Positions 1 through 17,765 of a DNA stretch of 64,000 bases are shown here, one piece after another. The notes beneath the pieces were generated by a model. It saw nothing but the letters and a program-made list of their open reading frames with translations. It was not told the DNA's origin and searched no databases. Numbering within the stretch: the first letter of the stretch is position 1; each line of letters starts with the position of its first letter. Origin of the DNA: an uncultured Hyphomicrobiales bacterium (GTDB lineage: Bacteria > Bacteroidota > Ignavibacteria > Kapaibacteriales > UBA2268); NCBI GenBank assembly GCA_964637845.1, contig CAZWXI010000003.1:27859-91858 (forward strand), written 5' to 3'. The position numbers and the translations under genes are program-made.

Positions 1-493
1 CTTGCCGGGCAACATAATGTCTTTTTGGGGTTAAAATGCTTAAAACATCGGCATATCTTTGCCAAATTATATGTTCAATGTTGTGTAACCTTAAAAATGC
101 TGGAATTCCAAGAATCATTTTGAAATACAATGCTAAAGGCGCTGTACATGAATGTTCAGCTTGAATAAAATCGTAGTTTTTATTCTTAATGATATTTGAT
201 ATAGTAGTCTTTAAAAAATCGTTATAATACTTTCTCAAATAGATTGGATAACCGTCAAAAACAGACTTAAATATTCGCATCGGAGAATTTTGGGTCGAAT
301 AGTTAATAACATGAACTTTGGCGTAGTTTGATAAATGTTCAATGTGCTTCGTGTCAATTTTATTTTTCGAAAAAGTTATAAAATCAATTTCACATCCAAG
401 TTTATGATATTGCTTTACTATATTATAAATGCCTATTTTCCCACCATCATCAGCTGGATATACAAATTGGGGGGACAGGTACAAAATTTTCAT
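1..493 (-). CDS. glycosyltransferase, GT4/GT-B type; N-terminal part only, gene runs off the left edge
   Basis: Absent from the ORF track because it has no stop in the window. Hand translation from ATG 493..491 gives MKILYLSPQFVYPADDGGKIGIYNIVKQYHKLGCEIDFITFSKNKIDTKHIEH..., a typical Glyco_trans_4 N-terminus. I translated only the first ~53 codons and the last ~20 codons (down to position 2) and saw no stop; the middle was not checked. The start overlaps the stop of the upstream GT2 gene (ATGA at 490-493). Confidence 0.6.
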   Translation of the reverse strand, partial: MKILYLSPQFVYPADDGGKIGIYNIVKQYHKLGCEIDFITFSKNKIDTKHIEHLSNYAKVHVINYSTQNSPMRIFKSVFDGYPIYLRKYYNDFLKTTISNIIKNKNYDFIQAEHSCTAPLALYFKMILGIPAFLRLHNIEHIIWQRYADVLSILTPKRHYVARQ

Positions 494-1434
494 TTTTGCG
501 TGAAAAATTTTTTTAATTTAAGTTTAGCAAAGCTTGTTAAATAAATCCATATCTTTTTTAACTCGCCAACGTTCATGGTCACTTCGGCAATTTTGTTTTT
601 GGGGATTGGCATGTATTCATCACGACGAGTGGCAATTGCTACTGGTATTACACTCATGTAACCTTCGATGAAAGCTCCAATGGTAATTTTCATTCTCAGA
701 GCTTCAAATAGTTGTAAAAAGCAAAAAACTTTTGTACGATATACGGCACTTAAAAACGGAAAATATTTCCAAATGTATCTAACGTATTGCTTCGTCATTT
801 TCACCCATCTTGTAGGTTTGAGCCTTCCACCTATTGATGCAAAATGCAATACACGAATGCTTGGAAAGTATCTTATTTTAAAACCGGCGATAATGGAGCG
901 AGTACAGAAATCCAATTCTTCATGCCCCCATTCCCAAAATCCGCCTATTCTATCATAGACCCTACGTCTGATTGCCGCTCCAACTCCTATGAAATAGTTT
1001 GCCTCATAACCGTTAGGAGGTACATTAGTTTTGTCATGTACAAACGGATACCAATTCCAAACACCATAATTGTCTTTTACGTTGATACATTCACAACTAA
1101 TTACATCTATATCTTCAAATTTCTGAAAAACTTCAACAACTTTTGAGAACTCCTCATCGGTTTCTGGACTTGAATCGTCGTCAGTTCGCCATATGATGTC
1201 GCCGTCTGATATTTCAATGCCAATGTTTATACCCCGGATGTCAAGATTATCCGGTAGTCGCAAATACTTGATGTGGGGAAAATTCGAAGTCATCATAGAT
1301 TGGGTATCGTCTTCGGAAGCATTATCTATTACGATGATTTCTTTATTTTCGTACGTCTGCGACAAAAAGCGATTAATCGTAAATTTTAAATCTTCGCTTC
1401 TGTTTCGGGTTACTATGATGACACTAATTTTCAT
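490..1434 (-). CDS. glycosyltransferase family 2
   Basis: N-terminus MKISVIIVTRNRSEDLKFTINRFLSQTYENKEIIVIDNASEDDT plus a later DDD motif (WRTDDDS) is the classic GT-A/GT2 signature. ATG start verified at 1434. Confidence 0.8.
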   Translation of the reverse strand: MKISVIIVTRNRSEDLKFTINRFLSQTYENKEIIVIDNASEDDTQSMMTSNFPHIKYLRLPDNLDIRGINIGIEISDGDIIWRTDDDSSPETDEEFSKVVEVFQKFEDIDVISCECINVKDNYGVWNWYPFVHDKTNVPPNGYEANYFIGVGAAIRRRVYDRIGGFWEWGHEELDFCTRSIIAGFKIRYFPSIRVLHFASIGGRLKPTRWVKMTKQYVRYIWKYFPFLSAVYRTKVFCFLQLFEALRMKITIGAFIEGYMSVIPVAIATRRDEYMPIPKNKIAEVTMNVGELKKIWIYLTSFAKLKLKKFFTQK

Positions 1435-1510
1435 ATTACGTATATTACTTATTTTGACAATTCAAAAATAAGGAAATGTTTTTAACAAAGCCACTGTTTG
1501 GATGAGAATG

Positions 1511-2167
1511 CTATTGATGAGCCGATGGACACAATTTCGCGATTTTACATTCAGTACATCTTGGCCTTCGAGCTATACAAGTGTTTCTACCGTGATTTAT
1601 GAAATAATGGGTAAATGTGGCCCATATATCGCGTGGAATAAGTTTCATTAAAGCATGCTCTATTTTAACGGCATCAGTCGTTGCGACAAAGCCAAGTTTG
1701 TTACTGATTCTTATGACATGTGTATCTACTACGATGGCTGGTGTATCAAAGCAATGCCCGAGAATTACATTTGCGGTTTTTCTCCCTACTCCCGGCAATT
1801 TTACCAAATCATCGAGATGATTGGGTACTTCTCCGTCAAATTCATCAATAATCATTTTGCAAGCCAATCGAATATTTCTAGCTTTCGTCTTATAAAAACC
1901 CGTCGAAAAGATATCTCGTTCGAGTTCTTCGGGATCAACAATCAAGTAGTCTTGAGGTATTTTATACTTCTCAAAAAGCGTTTTAGTGACAATATTAACC
2001 CTATTGTCAGTGCATTGAGCAGAAAGAATTGTAGCAATTAGTAGTTCAAATGGGTTAGTATGTTCCAATTGAATTTTCACATTAGGATATACGCTTGCGA
2101 GAACGTCAATCACTTGAGCCATTCTCTGCTTTTGGTATTTGATGTTCTTGGAAAACTTTTTTGTCAT
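1511..2167 (-). CDS. nth: endonuclease III (DNA-(apurinic or apyrimidinic site) lyase)
   Basis: HhH-GPD signature (LIATILSAQCTDNRVN, LPGVGRKTANVILG) and a C-terminal 4Fe-4S Cys cluster (CIARRPRCTECKIAKLC). The ATG at 2167 overlaps the upstream stop (ATGA). Confidence 0.93.
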   Translation of the reverse strand: MTKKFSKNIKYQKQRMAQVIDVLASVYPNVKIQLEHTNPFELLIATILSAQCTDNRVNIVTKTLFEKYKIPQDYLIVDPEELERDIFSTGFYKTKARNIRLACKMIIDEFDGEVPNHLDDLVKLPGVGRKTANVILGHCFDTPAIVVDTHVIRISNKLGFVATTDAVKIEHALMKLIPRDIWATFTHYFINHGRNTCIARRPRCTECKIAKLCPSAHQ

Positions 2168-2820
2168 TGTTGGTTTTTGATTGAATTACATATTGAATCA
2201 GCAGAGTTTCTATAATAAACGTAGGTGGGTAATTTTGTCTTTGCAATAGTGATGCCGGAACCGACAGCCTTATTGAAAAACAGTGTATCCTCACCATATT
2301 CTACTGCTTCAAAACCGTTTAATTTCGATTCAGGAGAATTTCTGATGAAAAAAGTACCCCCTATGATGCATTCAGTTAAATGAATTCTATTTTCTCTATC
2401 ATGCATGTCGGGAACATATTCGTTACCAATAATTCTAACTCCTCCATGCAGAAGCTCGATGTACGAATTTTGATTAAGAATATCCGCTCTCAGTTCCAAA
2501 TGTTGAGGTTCGTATTCATCATCAGAATCGAGAAATGTTATGTATATTCCAGAAGCGGCAAGTAAACCGGCATTTTTCGAAAGTGCCTGTTTACGATTAG
2601 AATGAAAAAGGTACCTGAACCTATAATCTGAAGTAATATAGTTTTTAATTACATCAAAAGTGCTATCGCTACTGCCATCGTCAACTATTAAGCATTCCCA
2701 GTCTAAAAATGTCTGATTCAACAAAGAAGTGATTGCTCTTTGTAACAGATTAGCTCTATTATACGTCGTAAGGATGACTGAGTAAAAAGGAATCCGATTT
2801 TGATTAACCGATATTAACAT
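2164..2820 (-). CDS. glycosyltransferase family 2
   Basis: FYSVILTTYNRANLLQRAITSLLNQTFLDWECLIVDDGSSDST and a later DSDD motif are GT2 hallmarks. ATG verified at 2820..2818. Confidence 0.8.
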   Translation of the reverse strand: MLISVNQNRIPFYSVILTTYNRANLLQRAITSLLNQTFLDWECLIVDDGSSDSTFDVIKNYITSDYRFRYLFHSNRKQALSKNAGLLAASGIYITFLDSDDEYEPQHLELRADILNQNSYIELLHGGVRIIGNEYVPDMHDRENRIHLTECIIGGTFFIRNSPESKLNGFEAVEYGEDTLFFNKAVGSGITIAKTKLPTYVYYRNSADSICNSIKNQQ

Positions 2821-3523
2821 GGATATTACACAATTTTGGACAATTTGTTCTGCTAATTCAATAGTTCTATCGGTAGAACAACTAAAGAATTTTGAACGTT
2901 ATCACAATGAACTCCTTTATTGGAATTCAAAAGTAAATTTAATTTCACGGAAAGATGAAGCTAATATTTTTGAAAAACATTTTCTACATAGCCTATCGAT
3001 TCTAAAATATATCAAAATACCGGCTAAAGCCGGATGTCTCGATATAGGAACCGGTGGTGGGTTCCCTGGATTGCCCATTAAAATTGCTTGTCCAAATACT
3101 CATATGACATTGGTTGATTCAATCAAAAAGAAAACAACTGTAACAAATATGTTTGCCTCTCATACAGGTTTGAGAAATATCAAAGTTTTAACGAAGAGAG
3201 CCGAGGAGTTAAGAAATTCTAAAGATTTTATCTTCAAATTCGATTTCATTTTTGCTAGAGCTGTTGCAAAATTATCTAATCTTGTTTCTTGGACATACGA
3301 TTGCCTAAGAAACGATGGTCTTTTCGCTTTTTTGAAAGGCGGCAATTTGGATACTGAAATTCAAGAACTACTGATTGAATTTCCAAAATTATCTGTGAAA
3401 ATTGAGCCACTCGATATATTTGGATGCGATTCATTTCTTAAAGATGATAAGAAAATCGTTTTTATAGGTAAGAAGCCGCTTGAAATTAATGATAAACTCT
3501 TACGTCATCACATAAAACATTAG
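2819..3523 (+). CDS. rsmG: 16S rRNA (guanine527-N7)-methyltransferase RsmG/GidB
   Basis: WNSKVNLISRKDEANIFEKHFLHSL plus the SAM-binding motif CLDIGTGGGFPGLPIKI, with a length typical of RsmG. Confidence 0.88.
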   Translation: MDITQFWTICSANSIVLSVEQLKNFERYHNELLYWNSKVNLISRKDEANIFEKHFLHSLSILKYIKIPAKAGCLDIGTGGGFPGLPIKIACPNTHMTLVDSIKKKTTVTNMFASHTGLRNIKVLTKRAEELRNSKDFIFKFDFIFARAVAKLSNLVSWTYDCLRNDGLFAFLKGGNLDTEIQELLIEFPKLSVKIEPLDIFGCDSFLKDDKKIVFIGKKPLEINDKLLRHHIKH

Positions 3524-3527
3524 TTCG

Positions 3528-4202
3528 ATGCATCCTATGATTAAGATATATATAACAGCACTGATACTTGTGATTTTTTGCGGAGAAGCATTTGCTCAAC
3601 AAATTTCCTCAGCGTTTAGAATAGCTCGGGTTAAGTATTCAGGGGGCGGAGATTGGTACAATGACCCCTCAGCCGAAGTTGAGTTATTGAAATTCGTACA
3701 AAGAAATACAAATTTGCACGTCGAACCTATATATGAATTTGTAGATTTGTCCTCGGATAAAATATTCGAGTATCCATTCATGTTTCTAACCGGGCATGGA
3801 AATGTTAATTTGACTGAAAGTGAAGTGCGCAGATTAAGAGCTTACCTTCAAAATGGAGGGTTCCTCTACATTGATGATGATTATGGTCTTGATACCTTTA
3901 TACGCAAGGAAATGAAAAAAGTATTCCCGGAGCAGGAATTTGTTGAGGTGCCTTTTTCTCATGGTTTATTTTCCTCGCATTTTAAATTTCCAAACGGTGT
4001 ACCGAAAATACACGAACATGACGACAAAAAACCTCAGACATTCGGACTTTTCCATAGAGGACGTTTGTGCGTTTTATATACTTATGAAACAAATCCGAGC
4101 GATGGTTGGCCCCCGCCAACTGTACACAATACGCCACCCGAAAAACGTGAACACGCATTGAAATTCGGAACTAATATTATAGTTTGGGCATTATCAAATT
4201 AA
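3528..4202 (+). CDS. DUF4159 domain-containing exported protein
   Basis: Signal peptide (ALILVIFCGEAFAQQ). FRIARVKYSGGGDWYNDPSAE, FMFLTGHGNVNLTESEV, GGFLYIDDDYG and PKIHEHDDKKPQ match my recollection of DUF4159 proteins of Bacteroidota. It starts 4 nt after rsmG. Confidence 0.8.
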   Translation: MHPMIKIYITALILVIFCGEAFAQQISSAFRIARVKYSGGGDWYNDPSAEVELLKFVQRNTNLHVEPIYEFVDLSSDKIFEYPFMFLTGHGNVNLTESEVRRLRAYLQNGGFLYIDDDYGLDTFIRKEMKKVFPEQEFVEVPFSHGLFSSHFKFPNGVPKIHEHDDKKPQTFGLFHRGRLCVLYTYETNPSDGWPPPTVHNTPPEKREHALKFGTNIIVWALSN

Positions 4203-4210
4203 GGAAGCCA

Positions 4211-7200
4211 ATGAGAATCGATAATTTAAATTTTTCAGAATTAGTAAACAAAGTTAAATCAGTAAGACGACTCGAAACTGGGGTTCTGTTGTTGACATCA
4301 CTACTAAACACTTTGGCTTATGGATTTACGATGCTTTTCATATCAGTGTTAATTGAAGCTATTGCACACGGAAGCAGTACATTTCGGACATTCTTAATGG
4401 CTGTAACGGTAGGTTCGTCAGTTGTAATTACTTTTTGGCTGATAAGTCCGCATATACTACGTGCTTTGGGAATAAAATACGAACCCTCAGAATATGATAT
4501 AGCACTTAGGATAGGCCAATATTATCCTAAAATCAAAGATAACCTCTGTAATGCGATGCAACTTGTGCCTTTTATTGATAATCCGCGAGGCTCATCACCA
4601 GAGCTTGCTTTCGCCGCTTACAAAAGTGTTTATGAGAATGTCCGGGATTTGAATTTTAATGTAATTATTGACCGTGAAAAGTTTAAAAGAGCCGGGATAA
4701 TCTTCTTCTCTATTGCCTCCATTACAATTTCAAGCATAGCAATATTCAACTCTACCCTTGGCGAGTCATTATTAAGACTCTCTAAGTATTCGACATCTTT
4801 TTTACCGCCCATTCCTTTTACGATTGATATCGAACCCAAAGATGAAACTATCTTAAGGGGCGAGAATGTAACAATTAAAGTTATTGTAACCGGAGATATA
4901 CCCGATAAGATTTATTTGAATTTTAAAGAAGAACTACAATCAAATTTTGATGAAATCGAACTAAAGCCAAATGAAAACGGTGAATATGCCTATAATTTGA
5001 GTTCATTGAAAAGTACTATTAGCTTTTTTGGTTCAACATCATGGTTCAACGAGGATATTTTGACGCCAGTCGGGACAATCAAAGTAGTTGATAAACCCGT
5101 TATAAGGTCAATTTCTGGAAGATTGATATACCCTTCATACACAAACAACCAACCACGCTATTTTGATGAAAAAAATGGCGATATATCTGCTCTAAAAGGC
5201 AGTAGAGTAGAGTTAACCGCGTACAGCAGTAAAGAGGTTGTGTCTGGCAATATCGTTTTCATATCAGTCTCAAATGAGAATCATGCCGATAACACTTCAA
5301 TCCTTGATACTGTAAGATTTAGTCTGAATACATCCGGCACAGAATTGACTGGTGGATTCAAAGTAAGCAGGTCAGGCTATTATTACATAGAAGTAGTTGA
5401 CAACGATGGTAATTATAACGAAGAGCCTATCAATTATTCCGTAATTTCATCAATAGATGAGTATCCCAGAATTAATCTACTTGAACCTGAATTTGACGTG
5501 CAAATCAATGCCAATGCACTATTGCCCGTTAAAGCAGTCATAAGTGATGATTACGGTATATCCAGACTTAAATTATATTATCGCATGGCTTATTCGCCCT
5601 ATGCGGTGCCTGATGAGAAATTTACATCTACTGAAATCAATTTTGTAAAAGACCAACTCGATTTTGAAATAAATTATCTGTGGGATTTAAACAAATTGGG
5701 TATAATGCCCGAAGACATATTTGAATTTTATCTTGAAGCAGCCGATAACGATATAATAAGCGGTCCAAAAACTTCACGAACTCAAACGCTCAAAGTAAGA
5801 CTACCTTCACTGTTTGAAGTACAAAAGGAAACCGAATTGACACAGGAGTATATTGAAAAAAATCTTGATAAACTGTTGAAAGAGACACTTGAAGTTAAGC
5901 GAGATTTAGAGGAGTTAAACAGGGACATTCTCAAAGACAAGAATCAAGAACCCTCTTGGCAACAAAAGAAAAAAGCCGAAGATTTGGCAAAACGCCAAGA
6001 AGCATTGCGTCGTGAAATGAATAAATTGAGCAATGATTTGCAAGATGCAACGCAAAAAATGGAAGACAATAATCTTATTTCACAAGAAACGTTAGAAAAA
6101 TTTAGAGAACTTCAGAATTTAATGAAGCAAGTTGATTCTCCCGAACTTAGAAGAATGCAACAAAGAATGCAGGAAGCCATTCAAAACATGGACCAAGAAA
6201 CTTTGAAAAAAGCTCTTGAGCAATTTCAATTTAATGAGGAGCAATTCCGCAAGAGTATTGAACGTACGATGAAAATTCTCAAAAGGATCCAAGCTGAACA
6301 AAAAACCGATGCACTTAGGCAAAAAGCAGAAGATTTAGCCCGCAGACAAGAGGAATTACTCAATGATACAAAGAATTCAAATCCTCAAGATAACAAAGCT
6401 CAGAATGAATTATCAAAAAGGCAGGAGAAATTGGTTAATGAATTCGAGCAGTTAGAAAAAGAGCTAGATGCACTCAACGACTTATTGTCTGAAATTGGTG
6501 AAGAACAATTGCGGAATAACGAATTACAATCTGCAAGGAATGACCTTAATCCTCAAGAGACAAAATCTGAAATGTCTCAGTCAGAAAAGTCTCTTAAATC
6601 AGGAGATTTTAACAAATCTCAACCGTCGCAGAAAAAAGCCGCTGAGAATCTGAGAAAGTTCTCTCAAAAAATGGCTCAAATGAAGGAAAACATGAAACGG
6701 CAAGGGATGGAACAAGCAATACGGCAAATGCAAAAATCCCTCGATGATGTACTTGAGCTTTCCAAAAATCAAGAAAATATAAGAAATAAAACTTCGAGAA
6801 GCGATTTTAATTCAACACAATTACCCCGACAAGCGCAACAGCAAGCTGAATTATTCGAATCACTTGCCAATGTGACTAAAGCAATGTCAGAATTATCCGA
6901 GAAAAGCTTTGCAGTAACGCAAGAAATGGGCAATGAAATTATCAATGCACTCAACGAAATGAGAAATGCTGTTGAAAGCATGGCTGACAGAAATGTTCGA
7001 CAAGCTAATCAATCGCAAAGTGGTGCCATGAGTTCACTAAACAGAGCCGCATCGCAGATGCAGGAAATGCTACAAGCAATGAAAGACCAACAAAGCGGTT
7101 CGTGTAATAATCCGGGTGGTGAAGGTGAAGGCGAAGGTCAAGGTATGGGTTCAGGTGGAATGGGAATGTCTCAAAAGATGCAAGAGATCGCCGCTCAGCA

Positions 7201-7723
7201 GCAAGCGATTAATCAAGCGTTACAAGAAATGATGCAAGGCGGTTCCGGGCAAGGTGGTCGTGAGCAAATGCAAAGACAAGCCGAAATGGGACGTTTGGCA
7301 GATAAGCAAGGGCAAGCTCAAAAATCCTTGGAAGAATTAGCCGAAGAACAGAAGCAATTTGCCCCTAATAAGGAAAAGCTCGGCGAATTAAATCGCATTG
7401 CGAAAGAAATGCAGGAAATCATGTCAGACATCAGCAATAATAATGTAACTCCCGAAACGCTAAAAAAGCAAGAAAGAATACTTTCGAGACTTCTTGATGC
7501 CTCAAAATCAATTCATGACAGAGACTACGAAAAAGAACGAAAAGGCGATCGAGGCAGAGACATTTTCGGGAATAATCCGAATGAAATAGATTTGTCAACG
7601 CAAGAGGGCAGAAATGAGTTGATGAAACAATTGCTCGAAAGAAGTAGTAGGTCTTTTTCAAAAGATTACGAAAATCTCATTAGAGCGTATTTCAATAGCT
7701 TAGAAAATACCACTATTCAATAA
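4211..7723 (+). CDS. large membrane-anchored protein: N-terminal TM helices, beta-rich middle, ~600-aa Q/E/K-rich coiled coil (possibly DUF4175-like)
   Basis: Long clean ORF. The track start at 4184 is a TTG overlapping DUF4159. The ATG at 4211 is preceded by AAGGAAG. There are three hydrophobic helices in the first ~190 aa, then beta-rich sequence, then heptad-like E/K/Q/L sequence with a GGEGEGEGQGMGSGGMGM low-complexity patch. The family assignment is from memory and is weak. Confidence 0.7.
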   Translation: MRIDNLNFSELVNKVKSVRRLETGVLLLTSLLNTLAYGFTMLFISVLIEAIAHGSSTFRTFLMAVTVGSSVVITFWLISPHILRALGIKYEPSEYDIALRIGQYYPKIKDNLCNAMQLVPFIDNPRGSSPELAFAAYKSVYENVRDLNFNVIIDREKFKRAGIIFFSIASITISSIAIFNSTLGESLLRLSKYSTSFLPPIPFTIDIEPKDETILRGENVTIKVIVTGDIPDKIYLNFKEELQSNFDEIELKPNENGEYAYNLSSLKSTISFFGSTSWFNEDILTPVGTIKVVDKPVIRSISGRLIYPSYTNNQPRYFDEKNGDISALKGSRVELTAYSSKEVVSGNIVFISVSNENHADNTSILDTVRFSLNTSGTELTGGFKVSRSGYYYIEVVDNDGNYNEEPINYSVISSIDEYPRINLLEPEFDVQINANALLPVKAVISDDYGISRLKLYYRMAYSPYAVPDEKFTSTEINFVKDQLDFEINYLWDLNKLGIMPEDIFEFYLEAADNDIISGPKTSRTQTLKVRLPSLFEVQKETELTQEYIEKNLDKLLKETLEVKRDLEELNRDILKDKNQEPSWQQKKKAEDLAKRQEALRREMNKLSNDLQDATQKMEDNNLISQETLEKFRELQNLMKQVDSPELRRMQQRMQEAIQNMDQETLKKALEQFQFNEEQFRKSIERTMKILKRIQAEQKTDALRQKAEDLARRQEELLNDTKNSNPQDNKAQNELSKRQEKLVNEFEQLEKELDALNDLLSEIGEEQLRNNELQSARNDLNPQETKSEMSQSEKSLKSGDFNKSQPSQKKAAENLRKFSQKMAQMKENMKRQGMEQAIRQMQKSLDDVLELSKNQENIRNKTSRSDFNSTQLPRQAQQQAELFESLANVTKAMSELSEKSFAVTQEMGNEIINALNEMRNAVESMADRNVRQANQSQSGAMSSLNRAASQMQEMLQAMKDQQSGSCNNPGGEGEGEGQGMGSGGMGMSQKMQEIAAQQQAINQALQEMMQGGSGQGGREQMQRQAEMGRLADKQGQAQKSLEELAEEQKQFAPNKEKLGELNRIAKEMQEIMSDISNNNVTPETLKKQERILSRLLDASKSIHDRDYEKERKGDRGRDIFGNNPNEIDLSTQEGRNELMKQLLERSSRSFSKDYENLIRAYFNSLENTTIQ

Positions 7724-7746
7724 ATAATATAGATATTGATTTTATT

Positions 7747-8493
7747 TCAGCCGTTTTTAATTATTGCATCGATTATTTCAAGAATATCAGCCCAATCAGT
7801 TACAATTTCATCTGCAATGGTGCCATTATAGCCGTCACGATGAATTGTTGTAGGATCCCCCGCAAATTTTATGGCATACATCCCAAGCTGCTTTGCCCCC
7901 TTTATATCGGTTTTTTCGATGTCTCCGATATGAAGAGATTGCTCGGGGGTTGCTTCAAGTTCGCTTAGAACTTTCATGAATGCATTTGGATGCGGCTTGG
8001 ATACACCCGTTTCGTCGCTAAAACTAAATGATGTAAAGCAATCTAACAAATCATGTTGGTCAAGTAGCTTTTGTAATGTTACACCGGGTGTGAAGCCTGT
8101 GTCAGAGACAATACCAAGTTTGTAACTACGAGCTAATTCTCTGATTACTGGACCTGCATTACAAATTAGTTTAGGCGGATAATTAATAACTGAATCTGAA
8201 AACACCTGAGTAACTCTATCAATAGATGATTCTGTATAAGGCAAGCTTAAATAATTCCAGAAGAATTCTATTGTATCTTTTGGCTTGGGAGTTCTTTGCT
8301 GATTAATCCAAATGTCATTGAAATATTCCCACGAAGCGGCAAGAGCATTCTCAAAATCTTTAGTAGTTACGCTAACTCCTTGATGAGCAATTTCATTGAC
8401 CAAAGTGTGGTATCTAAGGGCATTTCTTTCTTTGCCTCCTGAAGAATCAAATATTGTATTCCAAAAATCAATTGTTATTACTTTAAGTTTCAT
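7747..8493 (-). CDS. HAD-superfamily hydrolase
   Basis: Motif I region MKLKVITIDFWNTIF, motif II GIVSDTG, motif IV HIGD. The track start at 8523 is a GTG. The ATG at 8493 places motif I at the usual distance from the N-terminus. The start is uncertain. Confidence 0.75.
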   Translation of the reverse strand: MKLKVITIDFWNTIFDSSGGKERNALRYHTLVNEIAHQGVSVTTKDFENALAASWEYFNDIWINQQRTPKPKDTIEFFWNYLSLPYTESSIDRVTQVFSDSVINYPPKLICNAGPVIRELARSYKLGIVSDTGFTPGVTLQKLLDQHDLLDCFTSFSFSDETGVSKPHPNAFMKVLSELEATPEQSLHIGDIEKTDIKGAKQLGMYAIKFAGDPTTIHRDGYNGTIADEIVTDWADILEIIDAIIKNG

Positions 8494-8603
8494 TTTTCGT
8501 AGCATCATTAAATTTATAGCCACGAAGTTGAAAAGGTAAAATTTTATTTATATTTGAAATGTTGCTGTGTAACAATATTGTTTTGCCTGTGTTTTTTAAT
8601 TAT

Positions 8604-11600
8604 ATGTTAAAGTTAAACTTTTTGAATTTTTTTTTATTTATATCTTGTGCTTTTATATTAAAATCTCAGGATGAAAAGCCATTTCTGATAGATTTTGGAG
8701 ATGAACATGTAACAGATGAGCAAATCGGAACTCTAACAAGAGGTATAAATCACTTCCAAATGTATCTTTCTCCAGGTCAGACAATAAACGATAAAAGAAG
8801 TGAATTACTTATTAACACTGTGAATGGCAATGTCTTCTATCGCAGAAATGATATTCTAATACATGGCGCCCCCTTCCCTATTAGCGTATCATTTTCTTAC
8901 AACAGTACAAGCAGTTTTAAAGGAAGATACGGATATAAATGGCAATTTTCTTACAATATTCAATATGTAGCAAACAACTTCAACAGCAATTTGATTATTC
9001 ATCTTAGTGACGGTAAAACCGAACTCTATATAGCACAAGATAGCGTATATATTCCTTTTTATGGAGCAGAAGGTAAACTTAAATTTAAAGATACGGCACT
9101 CTACTATCAGGCGAATTCAATGAAATCACTGCAAATCGAAAAGCCACTTGATTTGAAATTTGGAGGTGTTGGTCATAATTATATAACACGTATTTCAGAT
9201 ATGTTTGGAAATGCCATAGAACTAGAATATATCTCGAAAAGATTGAGCCGAGTTATTTTTCCTAACAATGGCACCCTTGAACTATCATACGAAAAGGAGC
9301 TATTGGCAGAAATTAACTATTCGAACGCATACAAAATTAATTTCAAGTATGACGAAAGTGAAAATTTAATAGAAGTTAATCATCCGTCAGATGAAACTTA
9401 CAAATACGAATATGATACTGAATGCAATTTGCTGACAAAAATCATCTATCCCGATGGGCGGCATGTTAAGATAGATTATGATAATAATCTTGCAGTTTCC
9501 GGGCTTCTAATAAACGATTCACTTCAGTACACATTTGATTTAAACTTGCAATCTGACAGCTTTGATGCAAAATTACCAAATGATTGGACATATAGTTTTT
9601 TGAGTGATAGTTTGTTTAGAACCATTGCAAAATCTGACCCGGCAGGCAATATAACTGAATATCAATATGATTTGAACAATAGATTGATTGCCATTGAACG
9701 TCCCGGCGAAGCAACTACACGCTATTTCTACAATGATGACGGCTTAATGATAATTAAGATAGACCCTCTTAATAGGCAATCATCATACTCATATTCAAAA
9801 TTGGGGTTGATAGAAAGTTATACCGATGCCGAGAATAATACATGGAATATTTTGAGGGACTTTTATGGAAAAATCAAAGAAATAGCATCAGTTAGTTATT
9901 CTTATCGTTATTCATTTGACGAATCCAATCGCTTGACAACTTTTTCTTTCGGTGATTCGAAGTTTCATTTTGAAAATGACAAACAAAGAAACTTGCTTCG
10001 GATCAGCTTTGATAGGGACATCATTTATGACTTTAGATTCGATAAATTTTCAAAATTAACATCACTCACCAAACCGGATAGAAGTTTATATCTATTTGAT
10101 TACGACAAAACTGGAAATATGATTGCAATATCATATCCAAACGGAAGCATAAGGAAATTTGAGTATGACAAATCAGGAAGAATTTTAACCTTGACCGAGC
10201 GTGACAATACAAAATTTACTTTCGGATACGATTACGCAGGGCGCTTTAACTCATATACATTAGCTAATACTTTATATTTCTCTATTAAATATGGTTCCTT
10301 TGGAAACTTTTCGATTTTTAGAGGCACGCAAGTTTTAGGAGATTATCATTACGGAAAAAATTTCAAGCTGACTGGGCTGTTAAGTGCTTACCATCAATCT
10401 TTTGACTACGATGAAAGAGATAATTTGATAGTTCATAAAATTGAAAACGATATATTCAAACAGCAGAGATTTAATCTGAATGATGAACTTATCGAACGTA
10501 ATCAAGGAGGTTCTGTACAAACATTTAGGTATGATAAAATGTCGCGACCGGTTAGCATTGCTTCTGCTATTGGAAGATATGAATACACTTGGGACGAGCT
10601 GTCAAATTTAAAGCAAGTTCTTGCGCCCCATAATTTGGGGTTCTATATCAAATATAATCTTTTTTCGCAGCCGGAGAGTATTTTACGACAAAACTCAAGT
10701 TTTATAACTTATGGTTATGACAAAATTGGTAATCTGATATTAATCAACAAAAGTGGCGGTGACAATATCACCCAAAATTATGACATATCTGGTAATCTTA
10801 TAAGAACGACAAAAAATAATTTAGTACCTGTTAATTATACTTACGATTTAGGGGGACTAATAAAAACTATTAATAATGGTCTAATGAGTTTAGAATATGA
10901 CTATGATAATTGCGACCGAATAACGACTATAGTCCGAAATGGCAAGAGTTTTAAGCAATATAGTTACAATAATATTGGAAAAGTTAGCGACATCATTTCT
11001 TACAATGCAAAAACCAGTTATACTTACGATAATCTTGGTAAACTAAACTCAGTCACTAATAATGGATTAACTCACCGATTTAATCATTTCCCTCGTTCAC
11101 TTGTTGTTTCATATTTCAATGCTTTCAACTATCAGTATTCATATAATGAACGTGGTTTGTTATCAACTATAACAAATCCTGATAACGACGAACTGCGATT
11201 AATCTATAATTCCAATTTCAGGTTAAATGAAATTTTTCTTGATAACGATAACAGATTTAAAATCGAATATACGGGTGGAAGTTTATTAAGTTCAATGATT
11301 GATGGAACTGATAGAAGATTCAATTTTTACTATACAAACTCAGGAAGGCTATTAAGCATTACTGACCCAAACTTCAACTCAACCGGTATCATTCATGATA
11401 TTTACGGCAATATAACATCCTATTCATTACCGGGTAATGCTACTATCTCGTTATCCTATGATAAAGACCGTATTGAAAAAATCATTTTTCCGGGGAATGA
11501 TTCGCTTAAATACTCCTACAATCAATATGGAGATTTAATTAGCATAACTAACGAAAAGAACAATACAACTTACTATCAGTACAATACATTCGGTAAATTA

Positions 11601-14600
11601 TCTAAAGTTGGTGATAATTCACTTTCACAGTATTTCTATTACGATGATAATTTAAGAACGTCAAAAATAGTACTAAATTATGATTCTTTAAAATTTTTAT
11701 ATGATGATAACAAAGTTATCGGGATCACACTAAACGATTTGAAATTCGACTTACAATATACCAACGATAGATTAAATAGCATTTCCATTAATTCCAAACC
11801 CATTGTTACCATAACTTATGATGATTTCGGTTTACTTGCTTCTTTTACTAATAATTTCGGTTTCAAAGAAACTTATCAAAATTCCCACATAGGTTTAATA
11901 AATAAAGTTACTGATTTTATCAACAATGATATTGATAAGTTCTATGATAAATTGGGTAGAATTTTAACTATCAGGTATTCTCATGGCTCATTAGAGAGGT
12001 TTGGATATACCAAAAATGGTCTATTAGAAAGTTTCAGAAATAGAGATTTTTCGGAGTTCTTTGTTAGGTATAATAAAAGCAATTTACCCATTAAGTTCAT
12101 TATCAACAGATTCGATTCATTGACTTTTAATTACAACTCCTCGGGAGATATTGTTGAAATAATCAATCCATCGGGGACAGCAAACAAATTTCTTTACAAT
12201 ACTTTGGGTCAGTTGTCAGCATACATTGCCCCAAATAGCTCTTCAATCAATTTCCTTTATTCAAAATCTGCTAACGAGATTAAAGTTTTCACAACAATCG
12301 GTGACACCACTTCTTATGGTTTGGATAGATACAATCGAATAGTTTACATGAGAGACAAATCTGGAAGAACTTTCTTAAATAATCGTGGTCATACAGGTAC
12401 ATTATTCAGTAAAACAATTAATTCCGATACAACATACTCAATCAACTACGATAAGAATTTCAGAACAACTGAAATCAAAAAACATGACTTGATACACAGC
12501 TTTGAGTATGATTTAACCAATTTTGCGCCGAAATCAATATTGTTAAATGGCACGAAATATACCTTTAGTTTATCGGGTAATTCCATTAATTTATATCAAC
12601 AAAATCATCTTAATTCAACAATTAACTTTGACGGTAAATTATTACCTCGTAAGCTGGATTTTCCGCGAATTGGCAATTATTATTACACATATGATGAAAA
12701 CTTTAATTTAAGTCAGCAGATTGACGATATAATACACCCGAACACTTTTCAATTTTCTCCGTACGGTAATATTCTCGGGTTCATGAGAAACACAATTTTG
12801 TTCCCATTTGAATATGACATTAAATCAAATCTCGTCAAGTCAACCAGCCCAATGATAGATTATTCATTCTTCTATGACAATAATAATAATTTGATTATCG
12901 CAGGATTGCCTACTTCATTCGAGTTGAATTTCGATTATAATACGGCTGACCGCCTCAAAACAAGAACTGACCAGTCCGGAAGCATAAACTATTATGAATA
13001 TAATAAGATGGGCAAAACAGAGCGATACTCAAATCCATCTCTGTTTGTAAATGAAATAACTCTTGAATATGATTTAGCCGATAGAGTTAAAACTCAAAAC
13101 ACGAAATATGAGCAATCTGTAAATAAAGCAATCTTTTCTTATGAACCATTGAACAGGTTAGACCAAATCATTTATAAAGACAAAATATATCTTGAGGTAA
13201 AGCGAAACAAGTTTCAAAGAATCGATACATCGTATTCTGCAAGCGGGATTAAAATTATTTCCAAATATGATGAATTCCATAGACTAGTGAGTTTAGAGTA
13301 TCCCAACAATATAAGTATATCATATGAATACGGTATTTTTAATAAAGTCTCAAAGATTACTGTTAAGCAAGCTTCTATTATTCAAGAAGTCTATAACTAC
13401 GAATATGATAATTTAGGGCGGCTTATAACAGTCAAGTCCAACAATGACTCAATAGTATTTAAAGCAACTTACACGAGCCGCCATCAATATAAATCTTTTG
13501 AATCGGAAAATGGGAAAATGAATTTCACCTATAACTCAGGGGCCCGTTTAGTTTCACTAACAGAAAATGAAATTAGTAGAAGTATAGGTTATGGGGCTTA
13601 TTCAATTTTTCCAATTCGTATCGGTAGCCACAAAATCACTTCAACAAGCAAAGGAAACGTAACCTCGATTTCTAAAGATAACAATGAAACACTATACTAT
13701 TACGATAACGAGAGTAAATTAATCGGGATGATAGATACAACAGGCGTTTATACTTCTTTTCATTATAATCCACTTGGCAAATTGGTTAGAATAATATCAA
13801 CAGATACCATCGATTTAGAATATGTAAAATTTAGGGATAATGACCTTTTTTATCCCCAAATAAATGTCAATGGCTTAAAAAAAGCTACATATTACTACCA
13901 AGAATTGTTTGATGCTATGATACCGCTTAGTGCAAAAATAGACGGCACAACTTTCACCTTCATTGAAGATGAATTCGGTAATCGGTTGGGATATATTGCA
14001 AGCGATTCATTAATTTTAGAACCTCGATTTGATTATTTCGACTTTAGTTCGCCAAACGAATTTATACCAACCCGCCGATTTATACCAATTGTAGGAACAA
14101 ATTTAAAGTATGACGGCGATAATTTTTATAATGCTGATTTAGGAATGTACATAACAAATAACAACAATAAGTTCGGCTATTCATCACCTTTCTTGGAACC
14201 AATCTGTACAAGTGACAAAGATGAAAAATTTACAAATCAAGTTTCATATCAAATAGATTCGAAACTAATAATTGGTGGTTCTGAACGACATTCTAAACAC
14301 ATCGACAAGATACTTGATGGTAACATACTTTCAAATTTGGTTAAGAACGAAATAAATACTCAATTTAATAATTTTTTAACTTTCAAAGTATCAGCCGATG
14401 TCAAAGAGCCAAAAGCCAAGTACCCCTTGCTTATGCCCAACGATATTCTTCAAGTTCTTTATCTTGATATAATCAATGCCCCATGTAATCGAAATATTGA
14501 ATTGATGCCCGAAGGAATATCTTATCTTTCTGATACCGTATTCCAAAAAGCCTATCAGGGAATTAATATTGACAAGCTCATTAACCTACCTAAGCAAAAT

Positions 14601-15203
14601 TCTTCTAATCTTGAAAATATTCTTGAAATACTTAAATATTTAGATTATTCTGGTGATGACCAGTTGGTAAGAGTTTTGAATTTAATAAGAAGAATTTTAA
14701 ACATAGGAGAAATCATCTTACCCTCGAACGTAATTGACATATCCCCTATTAATGCATCTTTAGGATTTGTGGATTCTGTTTTAAAAGCAGAAGATTATGT
14801 CCACAAAATTATCACAAGTAGCCAAGAAATTTCACCGGTCCAGCAATCAATTGATAATGTTATCAAGGTTTTAGAGCAATACAAAAATTCACTCAAGCCG
14901 CCCACGAAACAAGATAATTGTATTGCGGTTGATATTTTATCACCAACAATTAAGAGTTATAAGCCAAATTATATTTATACTGATTACACACCCTCGATAT
15001 ATTATGATTTCATGGATGTTCAGTACTCCAATTTCAGTAGGATTTTTAGTGTAATTTCTAACTACAATAAACCTTTCAGATTACTGCCTTCATTGAATTA
15101 CGACAGCAATATTGTATTGCCCATTTATTTTGATACACTTGACGATATAAACTTGAAATATCTCAGACCTGTGTTCAAAAATTATTTTGACTTTTTACGT
15201 TAA
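8604..15203 (+). CDS. Rhs/YD-repeat protein with signal peptide and an uncharacterised C-terminal domain
   Basis: Dozens of YD repeats, for example YKYEYDTECNLLTKIIYPDGRHVKIDYD, YQYDLNNRLIAIERPGEATTRYFYNDDGLMI and YSYNNIGKVSDII. An N-terminal plug-like segment (LINTVNGNVFYRRNDILIHGAPFPISVSFSYNS...YGYKWQFSY) resembles DUF6531. A signal-peptide-like MLKLNFLNFFLFISCAFILKSQ begins at ATG 8604; an alternative ATG lies at 8559. Confidence 0.9.
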   Translation: MLKLNFLNFFLFISCAFILKSQDEKPFLIDFGDEHVTDEQIGTLTRGINHFQMYLSPGQTINDKRSELLINTVNGNVFYRRNDILIHGAPFPISVSFSYNSTSSFKGRYGYKWQFSYNIQYVANNFNSNLIIHLSDGKTELYIAQDSVYIPFYGAEGKLKFKDTALYYQANSMKSLQIEKPLDLKFGGVGHNYITRISDMFGNAIELEYISKRLSRVIFPNNGTLELSYEKELLAEINYSNAYKINFKYDESENLIEVNHPSDETYKYEYDTECNLLTKIIYPDGRHVKIDYDNNLAVSGLLINDSLQYTFDLNLQSDSFDAKLPNDWTYSFLSDSLFRTIAKSDPAGNITEYQYDLNNRLIAIERPGEATTRYFYNDDGLMIIKIDPLNRQSSYSYSKLGLIESYTDAENNTWNILRDFYGKIKEIASVSYSYRYSFDESNRLTTFSFGDSKFHFENDKQRNLLRISFDRDIIYDFRFDKFSKLTSLTKPDRSLYLFDYDKTGNMIAISYPNGSIRKFEYDKSGRILTLTERDNTKFTFGYDYAGRFNSYTLANTLYFSIKYGSFGNFSIFRGTQVLGDYHYGKNFKLTGLLSAYHQSFDYDERDNLIVHKIENDIFKQQRFNLNDELIERNQGGSVQTFRYDKMSRPVSIASAIGRYEYTWDELSNLKQVLAPHNLGFYIKYNLFSQPESILRQNSSFITYGYDKIGNLILINKSGGDNITQNYDISGNLIRTTKNNLVPVNYTYDLGGLIKTINNGLMSLEYDYDNCDRITTIVRNGKSFKQYSYNNIGKVSDIISYNAKTSYTYDNLGKLNSVTNNGLTHRFNHFPRSLVVSYFNAFNYQYSYNERGLLSTITNPDNDELRLIYNSNFRLNEIFLDNDNRFKIEYTGGSLLSSMIDGTDRRFNFYYTNSGRLLSITDPNFNSTGIIHDIYGNITSYSLPGNATISLSYDKDRIEKIIFPGNDSLKYSYNQYGDLISITNEKNNTTYYQYNTFGKLSKVGDNSLSQYFYYDDNLRTSKIVLNYDSLKFLYDDNKVIGITLNDLKFDLQYTNDRLNSISINSKPIVTITYDDFGLLASFTNNFGFKETYQNSHIGLINKVTDFINNDIDKFYDKLGRILTIRYSHGSLERFGYTKNGLLESFRNRDFSEFFVRYNKSNLPIKFIINRFDSLTFNYNSSGDIVEIINPSGTANKFLYNTLGQLSAYIAPNSSSINFLYSKSANEIKVFTTIGDTTSYGLDRYNRIVYMRDKSGRTFLNNRGHTGTLFSKTINSDTTYSINYDKNFRTTEIKKHDLIHSFEYDLTNFAPKSILLNGTKYTFSLSGNSINLYQQNHLNSTINFDGKLLPRKLDFPRIGNYYYTYDENFNLSQQIDDIIHPNTFQFSPYGNILGFMRNTILFPFEYDIKSNLVKSTSPMIDYSFFYDNNNNLIIAGLPTSFELNFDYNTADRLKTRTDQSGSINYYEYNKMGKTERYSNPSLFVNEITLEYDLADRVKTQNTKYEQSVNKAIFSYEPLNRLDQIIYKDKIYLEVKRNKFQRIDTSYSASGIKIISKYDEFHRLVSLEYPNNISISYEYGIFNKVSKITVKQASIIQEVYNYEYDNLGRLITVKSNNDSIVFKATYTSRHQYKSFESENGKMNFTYNSGARLVSLTENEISRSIGYGAYSIFPIRIGSHKITSTSKGNVTSISKDNNETLYYYDNESKLIGMIDTTGVYTSFHYNPLGKLVRIISTDTIDLEYVKFRDNDLFYPQINVNGLKKATYYYQELFDAMIPLSAKIDGTTFTFIEDEFGNRLGYIASDSLILEPRFDYFDFSSPNEFIPTRRFIPIVGTNLKYDGDNFYNADLGMYITNNNNKFGYSSPFLEPICTSDKDEKFTNQVSYQIDSKLIIGGSERHSKHIDKILDGNILSNLVKNEINTQFNNFLTFKVSADVKEPKAKYPLLMPNDILQVLYLDIINAPCNRNIELMPEGISYLSDTVFQKAYQGINIDKLINLPKQNSSNLENILEILKYLDYSGDDQLVRVLNLIRRILNIGEIILPSNVIDISPINASLGFVDSVLKAEDYVHKIITSSQEISPVQQSIDNVIKVLEQYKNSLKPPTKQDNCIAVDILSPTIKSYKPNYIYTDYTPSIYYDFMDVQYSNFSRIFSVISNYNKPFRLLPSLNYDSNIVLPIYFDTLDDINLKYLRPVFKNYFDFLR

Positions 15204-15239
15204 TATATAGTATTTAGGATTAGAACTAAACCAACTTTC

Positions 15240-16871
15240 ATGAAAATTATCAAAAAACTACAAATTTCAGCAGTTGTCATTCTGATTTCCATCCATTGCA
15301 GTGGATGCTCAAGCAGTTTACCAAAAGCAAAGTATGATATCGAATATATACTTGCAAAAGATTTCATTGTACCAATCGATACTAGCTATTTAAAGAAAGT
15401 GGCTATCAGTCATGTTGTTCGTGGCTCATCACTTCAAAATAAAGACGAACACGCATTGGCGGCTCTTGAGTTTTTAGATGCCTTACGGCACGATGAAAGC
15501 GCAGGTATTTACTTTGCTCTCGCCAATTCGTATCGAAAGACATATAAATTCGAATTAGCCATAGATGCATTAAAGAAAGCTCTTACTTTGAATAATGATT
15601 TTGAACCCGCCTATATTTTATTAGCTGAAATACTACTTCCGTTAAAGCAATACCAAGAAGCAATACGCATTCTTGAATTATGTTATGAAAAATTCAAACG
15701 CGAGGAAATGCTGCTTTACATTGCAAGTGTATATGAGTACTTCGATGCAAAGAAAGCTCTTGAATACTACGACAGAATACCTAAGGATAAACTTGATTTA
15801 TATACACTACACAAAATCGGAGAGCTTGCTCGCTCGATTGAGGATTTTGAACGCTTTACCAATGCATTAAATCTAATGATAGAAAAAGCTCCCGATAATT
15901 ATGCCCCACATTCCGGATTGGTGGAATATTATTTAATGATTGATTCACTAAAATCAGCTTTGGATATGGTTATTTCAACTGAAAAACGGTGGACTTTCGA
16001 GCAACAAAGAGCATTATACTCACAAATAGGCATATATTTTTTAAATCGCCTGTTCCCTATTGATACAACTCAAGCAATACGATTCATAAACAAAATTGAC
16101 AATAGATTCGAATTTGAAGATTTTTTGCGATTTACTGCAGGTACCGTTGCACAACAAATTGGTGATACAACAAAAGCAGACAAACATCTAGGGCATTTGC
16201 TGCGTAATTCCGATAACGAAGCATTTAGTCCTGTCGAAATTGCACGTGTTTACTTATTTGGAAATCGTTACGATAAAGTACTCTCTACATTACTTAATTA
16301 CGATAATATTGAACAAGATGCAAGGGTCCCTCATTTCATTGGAATAGCGAAAATGCAGACCAATCGCTATGCCGACGCTGAACCTTATATGCTTGAAGCT
16401 CTAAAGCTGGAGCCAAATAATGCCGATATTATTGGCAGTCTAGGTTACATTTATCATGAACTCAATGAAATTGAAAAATCTGATGAGTATTTTAAAAGAG
16501 CTTTGGTCTTAATGCCCGAAAGCGCTATGCTGAACAACAATTACGCTTATACTATGGCAGAACAAGGAAGAGACTTGCAAAAAGCTAAAAAAATGTCTGA
16601 GTTTTCAATTCTGAAAGAACCAGACAACGCATCCTATTTGGATACTTACGGATGGATTTTATATAAGCTGGGAGATTTAGAAAAAGCGTTAAAATACTTA
16701 CAGAAAGCTTATAATAACAAGACTGAAGCTTCTGTTGAGATATATTTGCATTTGATTGAAGTTTATGTTAAATTAAATGATACACGAAATGCCCAAAAAA
16801 TCTATTCTGAGGCATTAGATTTGTTTCCAACTAATAAAAAATTATTAGATTTGTCTAATGAAATTAAGTAA
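15240..16871 (+). CDS. TPR-repeat protein, probable lipoprotein or exported protein
   Basis: N-terminal hydrophobic segment ending in Cys residues (VVILISIHCSGCSS). Repeated 34-aa TPR-like units follow, for example YFALANSYRKTYKFELAIDALKKALTLNNDFEPAY and LGYIYHELNEIEKSDEYFKRALVLMPE. Confidence 0.75.
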   Translation: MKIIKKLQISAVVILISIHCSGCSSSLPKAKYDIEYILAKDFIVPIDTSYLKKVAISHVVRGSSLQNKDEHALAALEFLDALRHDESAGIYFALANSYRKTYKFELAIDALKKALTLNNDFEPAYILLAEILLPLKQYQEAIRILELCYEKFKREEMLLYIASVYEYFDAKKALEYYDRIPKDKLDLYTLHKIGELARSIEDFERFTNALNLMIEKAPDNYAPHSGLVEYYLMIDSLKSALDMVISTEKRWTFEQQRALYSQIGIYFLNRLFPIDTTQAIRFINKIDNRFEFEDFLRFTAGTVAQQIGDTTKADKHLGHLLRNSDNEAFSPVEIARVYLFGNRYDKVLSTLLNYDNIEQDARVPHFIGIAKMQTNRYADAEPYMLEALKLEPNNADIIGSLGYIYHELNEIEKSDEYFKRALVLMPESAMLNNNYAYTMAEQGRDLQKAKKMSEFSILKEPDNASYLDTYGWILYKLGDLEKALKYLQKAYNNKTEASVEIYLHLIEVYVKLNDTRNAQKIYSEALDLFPTNKKLLDLSNEIK

Positions 16872-16904
16872 ATAATCCAAATCCTTAATCAAATAGGATA
16901 AATA

Positions 16905-17765
16905 ATGTTTGTAATTATAGGTATCATCATAGTTTTTGTTTGTGTATTCGGAGGATTTTTCTGGGCAGCTGAATTTAATCCCGATGCAGTCGCATTCTTC
17001 CTGCACCCATATGAATACATCATTATTGGTGGAGCGGCAATTGGTTCAATGTTGATTGCTAACTCCAAAGAACTAAACACACGTATCATAAAGGGCGCCA
17101 TCGGGACAATGAAAGGAGCGGGAGTCAACAAACAGGCATTTATTGAGTTGTTGAAAATGCTCTATGAGTTGTTCCAGTTTGCAAAACGAGAGGGTTTAAT
17201 TGCATTAGAACAACACATCGAAAACCCTGAATCAAGCTCCATTATTTCCAAATACCCTTCATTTTTGGCAAATCATCATGCTGTTGATTTTCTTTGCGAC
17301 ACACTAAAGGTAGTTTTGTCTGGTGGTGTGCCCGCTCATGAATTAGAGGAATTGATGGATATTGATTTGGAAAACATTCATCAGGAAGAGCATCATCCAC
17401 CTGCCGCCTTAACAGTTGTATCCGATGCCTTACCCGGATTAGGCATTGTAGCTGCCGTTTTGGGTATCATAGTAACGATGTTATCAATTACAGAAGGCGC
17501 TGAAACAGTTGGCAAAAAAGTTGGCGGGGCGCTTGTTGGTACATTTATGGGAGTGCTGTTGGCTTACGGTTTTGTTGGTCCCATTGCGCGAAATATGGAA
17601 AGAGCCGTCGAGCAGGAAGCAAAGTACTTAGAATGTATCAAAGCCGCTCTACTTGCATTCGCTAAAAGCATGCCTCCGACGGTTGCAATTGAATATGGAC
17701 GCAGAGCAATTGACCCGCATCATAGACCAAGTTTCAAGGAAACAGAAGAAGCTATAAAAGGTTAA
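16905..17765 (+). CDS. motA: flagellar motor stator protein MotA
   Basis: Colinear with E. coli MotA as I recall it: N-terminal TM hairpin, SDALPGLGIVAAVLGIIVTM, GTFMGVLLAYGFVGP, AIEYGRR and HRPSFKETEE. AGGA lies 8 nt upstream of the ATG. Confidence 0.92.
   Translation: MFVIIGIIIVFVCVFGGFFWAAEFNPDAVAFFLHPYEYIIIGGAAIGSMLIANSKELNTRIIKGAIGTMKGAGVNKQAFIELLKMLYELFQFAKREGLIALEQHIENPESSSIISKYPSFLANHHAVDFLCDTLKVVLSGGVPAHELEELMDIDLENIHQEEHHPPAALTVVSDALPGLGIVAAVLGIIVTMLSITEGAETVGKKVGGALVGTFMGVLLAYGFVGPIARNMERAVEQEAKYLECIKAALLAFAKSMPPTVAIEYGRRAIDPHHRPSFKETEEAIKG

Follow-up and report, generated by a model that had tools for sequence, protein, structure and literature searches.

Rhs/YD-repeat cocoons are understood almost wholly as containers for interchangeable toxins, which they cut off and deliver, and to our knowledge animal teneurins are the only well-studied versions that stay uncleaved and are not toxins. 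Here we describe a giant YD-repeat (Rhs-superfamily) gene in a 64,000-nt stretch of DNA from an uncultured bacterium that GTDB places in the Ignavibacteria, order Kapaibacteriales (GenBank assembly GCA_964637845.1, contig CAZWXI010000003.1, positions 27,859 to 91,858; hereafter the window, to whose numbering all coordinates refer). According to the list of open reading frames (ORFs), the translation, and the Pfam and NCBIfam matches, the gene occupies 8559..15203 on the + strand and has 2214 codons plus a stop. We judge the chances to be about even that its product, inherited vertically and exported by the Sec route, is a YD cocoon that does not cleave itself and whose C-terminal domain is fixed, and not the carrier of an exchangeable toxin tip.

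Canonical Rhs toxins, such as E. coli RhsA, P. protegens RhsA (PDB 7Q97), V. parahaemolyticus RhsP (8H8A) and Tse5 (8CP6), combine a DUF6531-type N-terminal domain with a YD-repeat cocoon and a core, right after which a non-repeat domain begins, and the protein described here is likewise built. Its DUF6531 domain, typical of the N-terminus of Rhs proteins (8811..9023, +; aa 85-155; Pfam PF20148, E=1.1e-9), is the part best conserved against the two full-length relatives P0003 and L003 introduced below (55 % identity). The YD/RHS repeat shell follows at 9342..13838 (+; aa ~262-1760), with about 70 repeats of ~21 aa that match RHS_repeat PF05593 in Pfam (9.1e-57) and TIGR01643 YD_repeat_2x in NCBIfam (6.7e-49). 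NCBIfam also matches the RHS element core protein (RHS_core) in part, and PF25023 TEN_YD-shell is recorded for P0003 only. The repeats span about 1500 aa and the whole shell ~1700 aa; between about aa 262 and 1745 a YD motif recurs every ~21 aa, and not a single strict YD motif lies beyond aa 1745. The only matches among PDB sequences, all inside the repeat region, are Rhs cocoons (8h8a, 8qja, 8cp6 and 7q97, at 4e-29 to 1e-15) and, weakly, two bacterial teneurin-like proteins (9ifo and 9pt5, 5e-13).

T6SS-delivered Rhs effectors are linked to PAAR or VgrG (T6SS, type VI secretion system). In contrast, this protein begins with a Sec-type signal followed by DUF6531, no T6SS link was found, and the Pfam matches of the protein and its neighbours include no PAAR, VgrG, Tc or NHL domain. 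The predicted Sec signal peptide (8604..8669, +; aa 16-37, MLKLNFLNFFLFISCAFILKSQ) aligns with the N-terminus of P0003 and is the sole hydrophobic segment of the whole protein (Kyte-Doolittle maximum 1.92, at residue 16); its cleavage site is putative. P0003 begins at the position of M16, and the true start is likely the ATG at 8604. Codons 1-15 (MLLCNNIVLPVFFNY, 8559-8603) have no counterpart in P0003, and a start at 8559 would leave 35 nt to the start of the divergent HAD gene at 8523.

Canonical Rhs toxins match the core model, carry the Arg and two Asp residues of an autoprotease and end in a hypervariable tip; here we found none of the three. C-terminal cleavage of Rhs proteins needs these three residues (PMC9935623; PMC13018210), and in RhsA a D-to-N change at either catalytic Asp abolishes it (PMC8765631). 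The shell-closing region of the window protein (13839..14201, +; aa 1761-1881; FIEDEFGNRLGYIA...RFDYFDF...GTNLKYDGDNFYNADLGMYITNNN) is collinear with the canonical core and has G-x-Y-I-T as in the GRYITQDP of E. coli RhsA. It appears decayed: no match to the RHS repeat-associated core model (TIGR03696-type) was obtained with the whole protein or, at E<=10, with the core region (225 aa) of four orthologues. The segment at 14094..14165 (+; aa 1846-1869) is the positional homologue of ETGLxYNxxRYYDPxxGRFIxxDP, with N1855 at the position of the catalytic Arg and N1868 at that of the first catalytic Asp. Two independent alignments give this register. HMMER set the family profile (G1846-N1867 of the window protein) against residues 1102-1125 of PDB 8h8a (DQETNLHYNLARYYDPKLGRFIQQ) at -0.8 bits, and hhalign set GTNLKYDGDNFYNADLGMYITNNN against E. 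coli RhsA at P=0.07; each is non-significant alone, yet both arrive at the identical register at the expected place.

Across the four orthologues, the position of the catalytic Arg reads N/N/D/D and that of the first catalytic Asp N/Y/N/N, and no conserved Asp lies near +22-24 to serve as the second. Regular expressions run over the same four proteins returned zero instances of the DP.G...DP.G dyad, of P....DP.G and of R[YF]YDP. An initial annotation from the letters of the DNA, the sequence-only reading, had described a degenerate core end here and seen no DPxGL-type cleavage motif behind it, and both descriptions hold up. The peptide that it quoted is present but lies one codon off, since nt 14121 corresponds to N1855 and the first residue, D, is encoded at nt 14118. 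On the register given above, all three autoprotease positions are substituted, and the loss of the motif goes further than had been supposed. With the catalytic Arg and both Asp replaced, the tail most likely remains covalently attached instead of being released, and we strongly infer that it is uncleaved.

Relatives of this protein are few. A word-indexed search with the tail returned one, P0001 (a 633-aa fragment, 58 % identity, 1.5e-151), and the same kind of search with the shell end returned P0001 alone. An exhaustive HMMER profile search of 1.84 billion representatives gave four sequences, namely the window protein, P0001, P0003 (2205 aa, from a Candidatus Kapabacteria metagenome-assembled genome, MAG) and P0004 (a 62-aa fragment); a fifth, L003 (2232 aa, Ignavibacteriae bacterium HGW-Ignavibacteriae-1), was reached through a genome scan with the neighbouring TPR gene. 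One scan of a genome collection and two of metagenomes with the tail as query gave no further relative. These proteins go by the names 'DUF6531 domain-containing protein' or 'hypothetical protein' in the databases, and all come from Kapabacteria/Ignavibacteriota or from unassigned metagenome contigs. The family is very rare and limited to one uncultivated lineage of the FCB group, and its tail is a true orphan, known from five lineages among about 15 billion proteins.

Two of the relatives lie on damaged contigs. At one end of contig L001 (JGI 3300006065; 1-152), the orthologue shows an in-frame TAA where the window gene has a Glu codon (KDKIYLEVKRNK versus NDKDYL*VKRNK), about 100 nt from the contig end; this TAA, whether due to faulty assembly or to a true nonsense mutation, is the reason why P0001 was called as a 633-aa fragment. 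In L006 (Logan SRR2626152, 1-1045), which represents the fifth lineage, the end of the tail adjoins the start of the TPR lipoprotein gene; both genes are frameshifted there, so the contig is probably of low quality rather than a pair of pseudogenes.

The full-length proteins align collinearly and almost without gaps across 2200 aa. Between the window protein and P0001, tail and shell are 56 and 53 % identical; the corresponding values are 33 and 36 % for the window protein and P0003, 35 and 36 % for the window protein and L003, and 83 and 85 % for P0003 and L003. The closest pair gives dN/dS values of 0.177 (tail) and 0.149 (shell), indicating purifying selection on both. A tail that is conserved as much as the shell at three levels of divergence is not a polymorphic tip, a conclusion that we regard as well supported, and its evolution in step with the shell, at an equal pace and with purifying selection on both, marks it as a fixed functional part. 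The sequence-only reading had proposed an encapsulated polymorphic effector with a hypervariable tip and had itself named an alignment of homologues as the comparison able to refute this; that alignment, together with the single conserved locus, now speaks against the proposal. A classical polymorphic Rhs tip with an unrecognised immunity gene would suit a protein of Rhs architecture whose C-terminus is unrecognisable. The equal conservation of tail and shell in every pair, with purifying selection on both, already contradicts it, as does the presence of the same tail at the same locus in all relatives. We also found no small downstream ORF, no orphan tips and no DPxG cleavage motif, and we consider this explanation very improbable.

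Even more far-fetched, in our judgment, is that the tail is an artefact, either the end of a decaying pseudogene or a mis-fused ORF, as the in-frame TAA in the L001 shell and the frameshifts in L006 might indicate. The window ORF runs stop-free for 2214 codons in DNA of 32 % GC and has intact, collinear orthologues of 2205 and 2232 aa, so that intact ORFs of 2205-2232 codons exist in three assemblies of AT-rich DNA, with dN/dS of 0.15-0.18. The defects, on the other hand, are found at the end of one contig and in a 1-kb Logan contig of low quality, where the TPR gene is frameshifted too. The observation behind the sequence-only reading was thus sound overall, in that the ORF is real, the quoted peptide present and the tail an orphan.

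The orphan C-terminal domain itself (14202..15200, +; aa 1882-2214) comprises 333 aa (I1882-R2214; 360 aa with the motif included), has a mass of 38 kDa and is soluble and acidic (pI 5.4). The 360-aa tail has no match in Pfam, NCBIfam or PDB sequences, as the sequence-only reading had anticipated in finding no recognisable family; searches in PADLOC, and in Pfam at E<=10 with four tails, gave inconsistent sub-threshold noise only. Matches to IML1, SPECT1 and restriction enzymes were discarded as part of this noise, being sub-threshold and confined to one or two members. The same reading had called the tail not YD-like, and this too is borne out. A descent from degenerate YD repeats was rejected, with an hhalign probability below 1 % for tail against shell versus 98 % for a shell-shell control, and no internal repeats were found within the tail. 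We likewise rejected a membrane-inserting or pore-forming tail, as no segment exceeds a Kyte-Doolittle value of 1.34 and there is no transmembrane segment. The tail alignment contains no invariant His or Cys, and this makes HNH/GHH nucleases, deaminases, Zn-peptidases and Cys-proteases less likely. With low confidence, the tail is predicted to be mostly helical to about residue 2110 and Tyr/Pro/Asn/Asp-rich thereafter. AlphaFold2 reached a pLDDT of only 30 and 31 on the tail with 2- and 3-sequence alignments, and a Foldseek search with the second model (pLDDT 31) gave E>=1 and TM<0.1, values that are meaningless on such a model. Neither structure prediction was usable; a structure of an orphan tail that AlphaFold2 does not fold could add a new fold.

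The most conserved stretch of the tail is its extreme C-terminus (15114..15200, +; LPxYFDTLDDxNL...RPxFKNYFDFLR in the alignment), where the last 14 aa are 57-71 % identical and which is retained in the fragment P0004 / L006 too. This conservation raises the question of whether the tail, or at least its final ~30 residues, serves to sort, secrete or anchor the protein, moving the cocoon across or onto the outer membrane, as an analogue of the C-terminal domain (CTD) of the type IX secretion system (T9SS), with the shell as the functional part. Such a role would be in keeping with an FCB-group organism and with a protein whose one recognised export feature is its Sec signal. Neither NCBIfam nor Pfam matched a T9SS Por-secretion-tail or other sorting-signal model on the tail, however, and 333 aa is far above the size of known sorting domains. 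There is also no hydrophobic anchor, and the helical prediction, of low confidence as it is, differs from the beta-sandwich of T9SS CTDs. We therefore consider a sorting module improbable.

A small immunity gene lies downstream of canonical Rhs genes. Here the next gene, 36 nt downstream, encodes a 543-aa TPR lipoprotein (15240..16871, +; Pfam TPR families; conserved Cys23 after the signal sequence), and no gene of immunity size is present: the interval from the tail to the TPR gene contains no ORF of >=60 aa, and neither strand has one that overlaps the tail. In all five lineages the next gene after the Rhs-like one, across a gap of 33-50 nt, is that for the same TPR lipoprotein of 543-544 aa. 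No terminator-like site was detected within 7600-17000, and a promoter scan found promoter-like sites at chance frequency only. The TPR protein is 76 and 56 % identical where the Rhs-like protein is ~55 and ~36 % identical, and this higher conservation makes it a poor fit to a fast-evolving immunity partner.

The TPR family also has a distant member elsewhere. In L004 (1-315; Candidatus Kapaibacterium sp. JBDNHS010000307.1), a TPR homologue with 31 % identity has no Rhs-like gene before it; upstream is the end of an apparent outer-membrane beta-barrel protein (...SLSFEMKF). This arrangement indicates that the family occurs without an Rhs partner too, although the L004 copy may be a paralogue.

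Whether the tail could be housed inside the shell can be gauged from other YD cocoons. RhsA has a shell of ~1000 aa and a cargo of ~15 kDa (PMC8765631), compared with ~1700 aa and a 38 kDa tail here. The amount of YD shell is instead comparable to that of the BC cocoon of Tc toxins, in which the four turns formed by TcB-TcC house a cargo of ~30 kDa (PMC8765631), so that the 38-kDa tail might be encapsulated, but only just. In mosquito SGS1, a helical C-terminal moiety is housed within the YD shell (PMC9935623). Both the Tc cocoon and SGS1 keep the Arg/Asp/Asp protease and are cleaved (PMC9935623), whereas the residues are replaced here, and SGS1 has transmembrane helices, whereas none are predicted in this tail. 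No TcB beta-propeller, SpvB / TcdB mid-N domain, receptor domain or TcA partner was found in the protein or its neighbours.

The main rival explanation is that the tail is a real toxin, though a fixed one, which belongs to a new family and is carried in an oversized cocoon. It would be released in a non-canonical way, by a protease of the host or target or at a new autoprocessing site, for example the invariant Y-x-[IV]-D-S-x-L-[ILV]-I-G block about 30 aa past the motif, with the TPR lipoprotein in the role of immunity factor, chaperone or export partner. The tail does begin exactly where Rhs toxins begin, straight after the core, and like many toxin domains it is a unique orphan. The ~1700-aa shell is as large as the TcB-TcC cocoon with its ~30 kDa cargo, bacterial teneurin-like and Rhs proteins are nearly always toxin carriers (PMC13018210), and both the invariant D-S-x-L-x-I-G block past the motif and the conserved envelope lipoprotein gene downstream, with no terminator in between, would find a place in such a system. 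What is missing is diversification: tail identity equals shell identity and the tail has a dN/dS of 0.18. The TPR gene changes at a slower pace than the Rhs gene, which is not the pattern of toxin-immunity pairs. The protein lacks the protease residues, a delivery module was not detected, and the tail has neither an invariant His or Cys nor the transmembrane or strongly hydrophobic helices of a pore-former. We regard a fixed toxin as unlikely, though it deserves to be taken seriously.

Our preferred explanation is of a Sec-exported YD-repeat cocoon of about 2200 aa, encoded by a resident chromosomal gene and inherited vertically in a small clade of Kapabacteria (Ignavibacteriota). Its shell would be closed at the C-terminal end by a decayed Rhs core in which the autoprotease Arg and both Asp are replaced, so that an acidic, soluble and probably mainly helical domain of 333 aa would stay covalently attached. 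The tail could lie inside the cocoon as tethered cargo or as a plug, or it could be a teneurin-like domain that leaves the shell and sits on it. The protein would have its role in the cell envelope, with the TPR lipoprotein as a possible partner. The sequence-only reading had offered, as its other possibility, a non-cleaved variant with a non-toxin function. The first half of this is backed by the three substituted catalytic positions and the lack of a DPxG dyad; the second is favoured by context only, and of the two readings of the tail, that it is not a toxin is the more likely.

Several points weigh against this explanation. Absence of cleavage was deduced from sequence only, from motif alignments that are individually non-significant (-0.8 bits; P=0.07), and RhsA-type N-terminal cleavage works by an unknown mechanism, so that another protease site is conceivable. 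Five lineages, effectively two or three clades, were available, and the absence of polymorphism rests on these few genomes; the lack of tail diversity could reflect sparse sampling of an uncultivated group. A tail of 38-41 kDa exceeds the ~30 kDa of the Tc cargo, which makes encapsulation uncertain. An effector acting in the periplasm could conceivably have the TPR lipoprotein as its immunity protein, and no positive evidence for any non-toxin activity was obtained.

Metazoan teneurins have a YD shell with an inactivated autoprotease and a C-terminal domain that stays attached, outside the shell (PMC8765631; PMC9935623). The family described here resembles them in its C-terminal region, which most likely stays attached too, and in evolving as one conserved unit over the whole protein. 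Teneurins, however, lack the last Asp only (PMC9935623), whereas all three catalytic residues are gone here, and unlike metazoan teneurins this protein is bacterial and predicted to be Sec-exported. FN-plug, NHL, ABD and Tox-GHH domains gave no Pfam family match in the protein or, at E<=10, in the four tails. The protein is not a member of the teneurin family, and the likeness would be at most an independent, parallel loss.

Bacterial teneurin-like proteins (TLPs) offer a second comparison. They combine FN-plug, NHL and YD-shell, keep the DPxG-X18-DPxG dyad and the Arg, and have their CTD cleaved; the CTDs are polymorphic and of ~15 kDa, with adjacent immunity genes (PMC13018210). TLPs such as BiTLP (PDB 9IFO/9PT5) are likewise giant (~2100-2200 aa), signal-peptide-bearing, built around a YD-shell, rare and scattered. 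None of the features that define them (FN-plug, NHL, dyad, polymorphic CTD, immunity gene) was found here by sequence comparison, and Ignavibacteriota are absent from the six TLP phyla named in PMC13018210.

We tentatively suggest, with rather less than even confidence, that this family represents an independent bacterial 'domestication' of an Rhs toxin cocoon, in which the autoprotease was lost and a lineage-specific helical domain of a previously unseen fold became a lasting, vertically inherited component of a machine in the envelope that works with the TPR lipoprotein. If so, it would be a prokaryotic counterpart of the history of teneurins in animals. Cocoons would then be repurposable within bacteria, as a family without protease residues whose tail is conserved like a housekeeping part would illustrate, and the family would provide a tractable system for asking what an 'empty or permanently loaded' cocoon does. 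Beyond the repeats, most hallmarks of an Rhs toxin failed here, including the core model, the protease, the hypervariable tip, the immunity gene and the delivery domain. The case is limited by an uncultivated host and by the missing functional clue.

The position of the gene in the chromosome is consistent with a resident. A gene for a HAD-family hydrolase (7747..8523, -; Pfam PF00702 and PF13419) is the divergent upstream neighbour in the window, in L002 (a Kapabacteria MAG) and in L003, giving the order HAD - Rhs - TPR in these three and Rhs - TPR in L001 and L006; further window neighbours are MotA/B, a response regulator and a tricorn-like protease. Neither the upstream inversion that distinguishes the window from L002 nor the absence of MotA/MotB/response regulator downstream in L003 has broken up the trio. 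The gene is ~5 GC points below the rest of the window (0.31-0.33 versus 0.35-0.39, over 8001-16000). Recent horizontal transfer, which low GC might suggest, was rejected: GC3 is 0.30 in the shell and 0.29 in the tail, inside the range of the neighbours. The low GC stems from first codon positions (GC1 0.34 versus 0.43-0.54) and thus from a composition rich in Asn/Ile/Tyr/Lys/Ser and not from codon usage.

Some minor observations concern the surroundings of the trio. In L003 (11636-14790), the MotA / MotB / response-regulator-HD genes that follow TPR in the window, L001 and L002 are missing, and a gene for a tricorn-like protease comes directly after TPR. No tRNA or tmRNA genes, and no Rfam families at the gathering threshold, were detected across the 64-kb window. 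A block encoding GT2, an HhH-GPD glycosylase, GT2, GidB, DUF4159 and a 1175-1179-aa DUF4175 protein is inverted relative to HAD-Rhs-TPR between the window (490-7723) and L002 (1-6948), which has additional genes for GT4, L28 and flavodoxin in between. The last ORF of this block in the window (4184-7723; 1179 aa) has a partial DUF4175 match (E=6.5e-22), the remainder being unannotated; it starts with TTG and overlaps the preceding DUF4159 gene by 19 nt.

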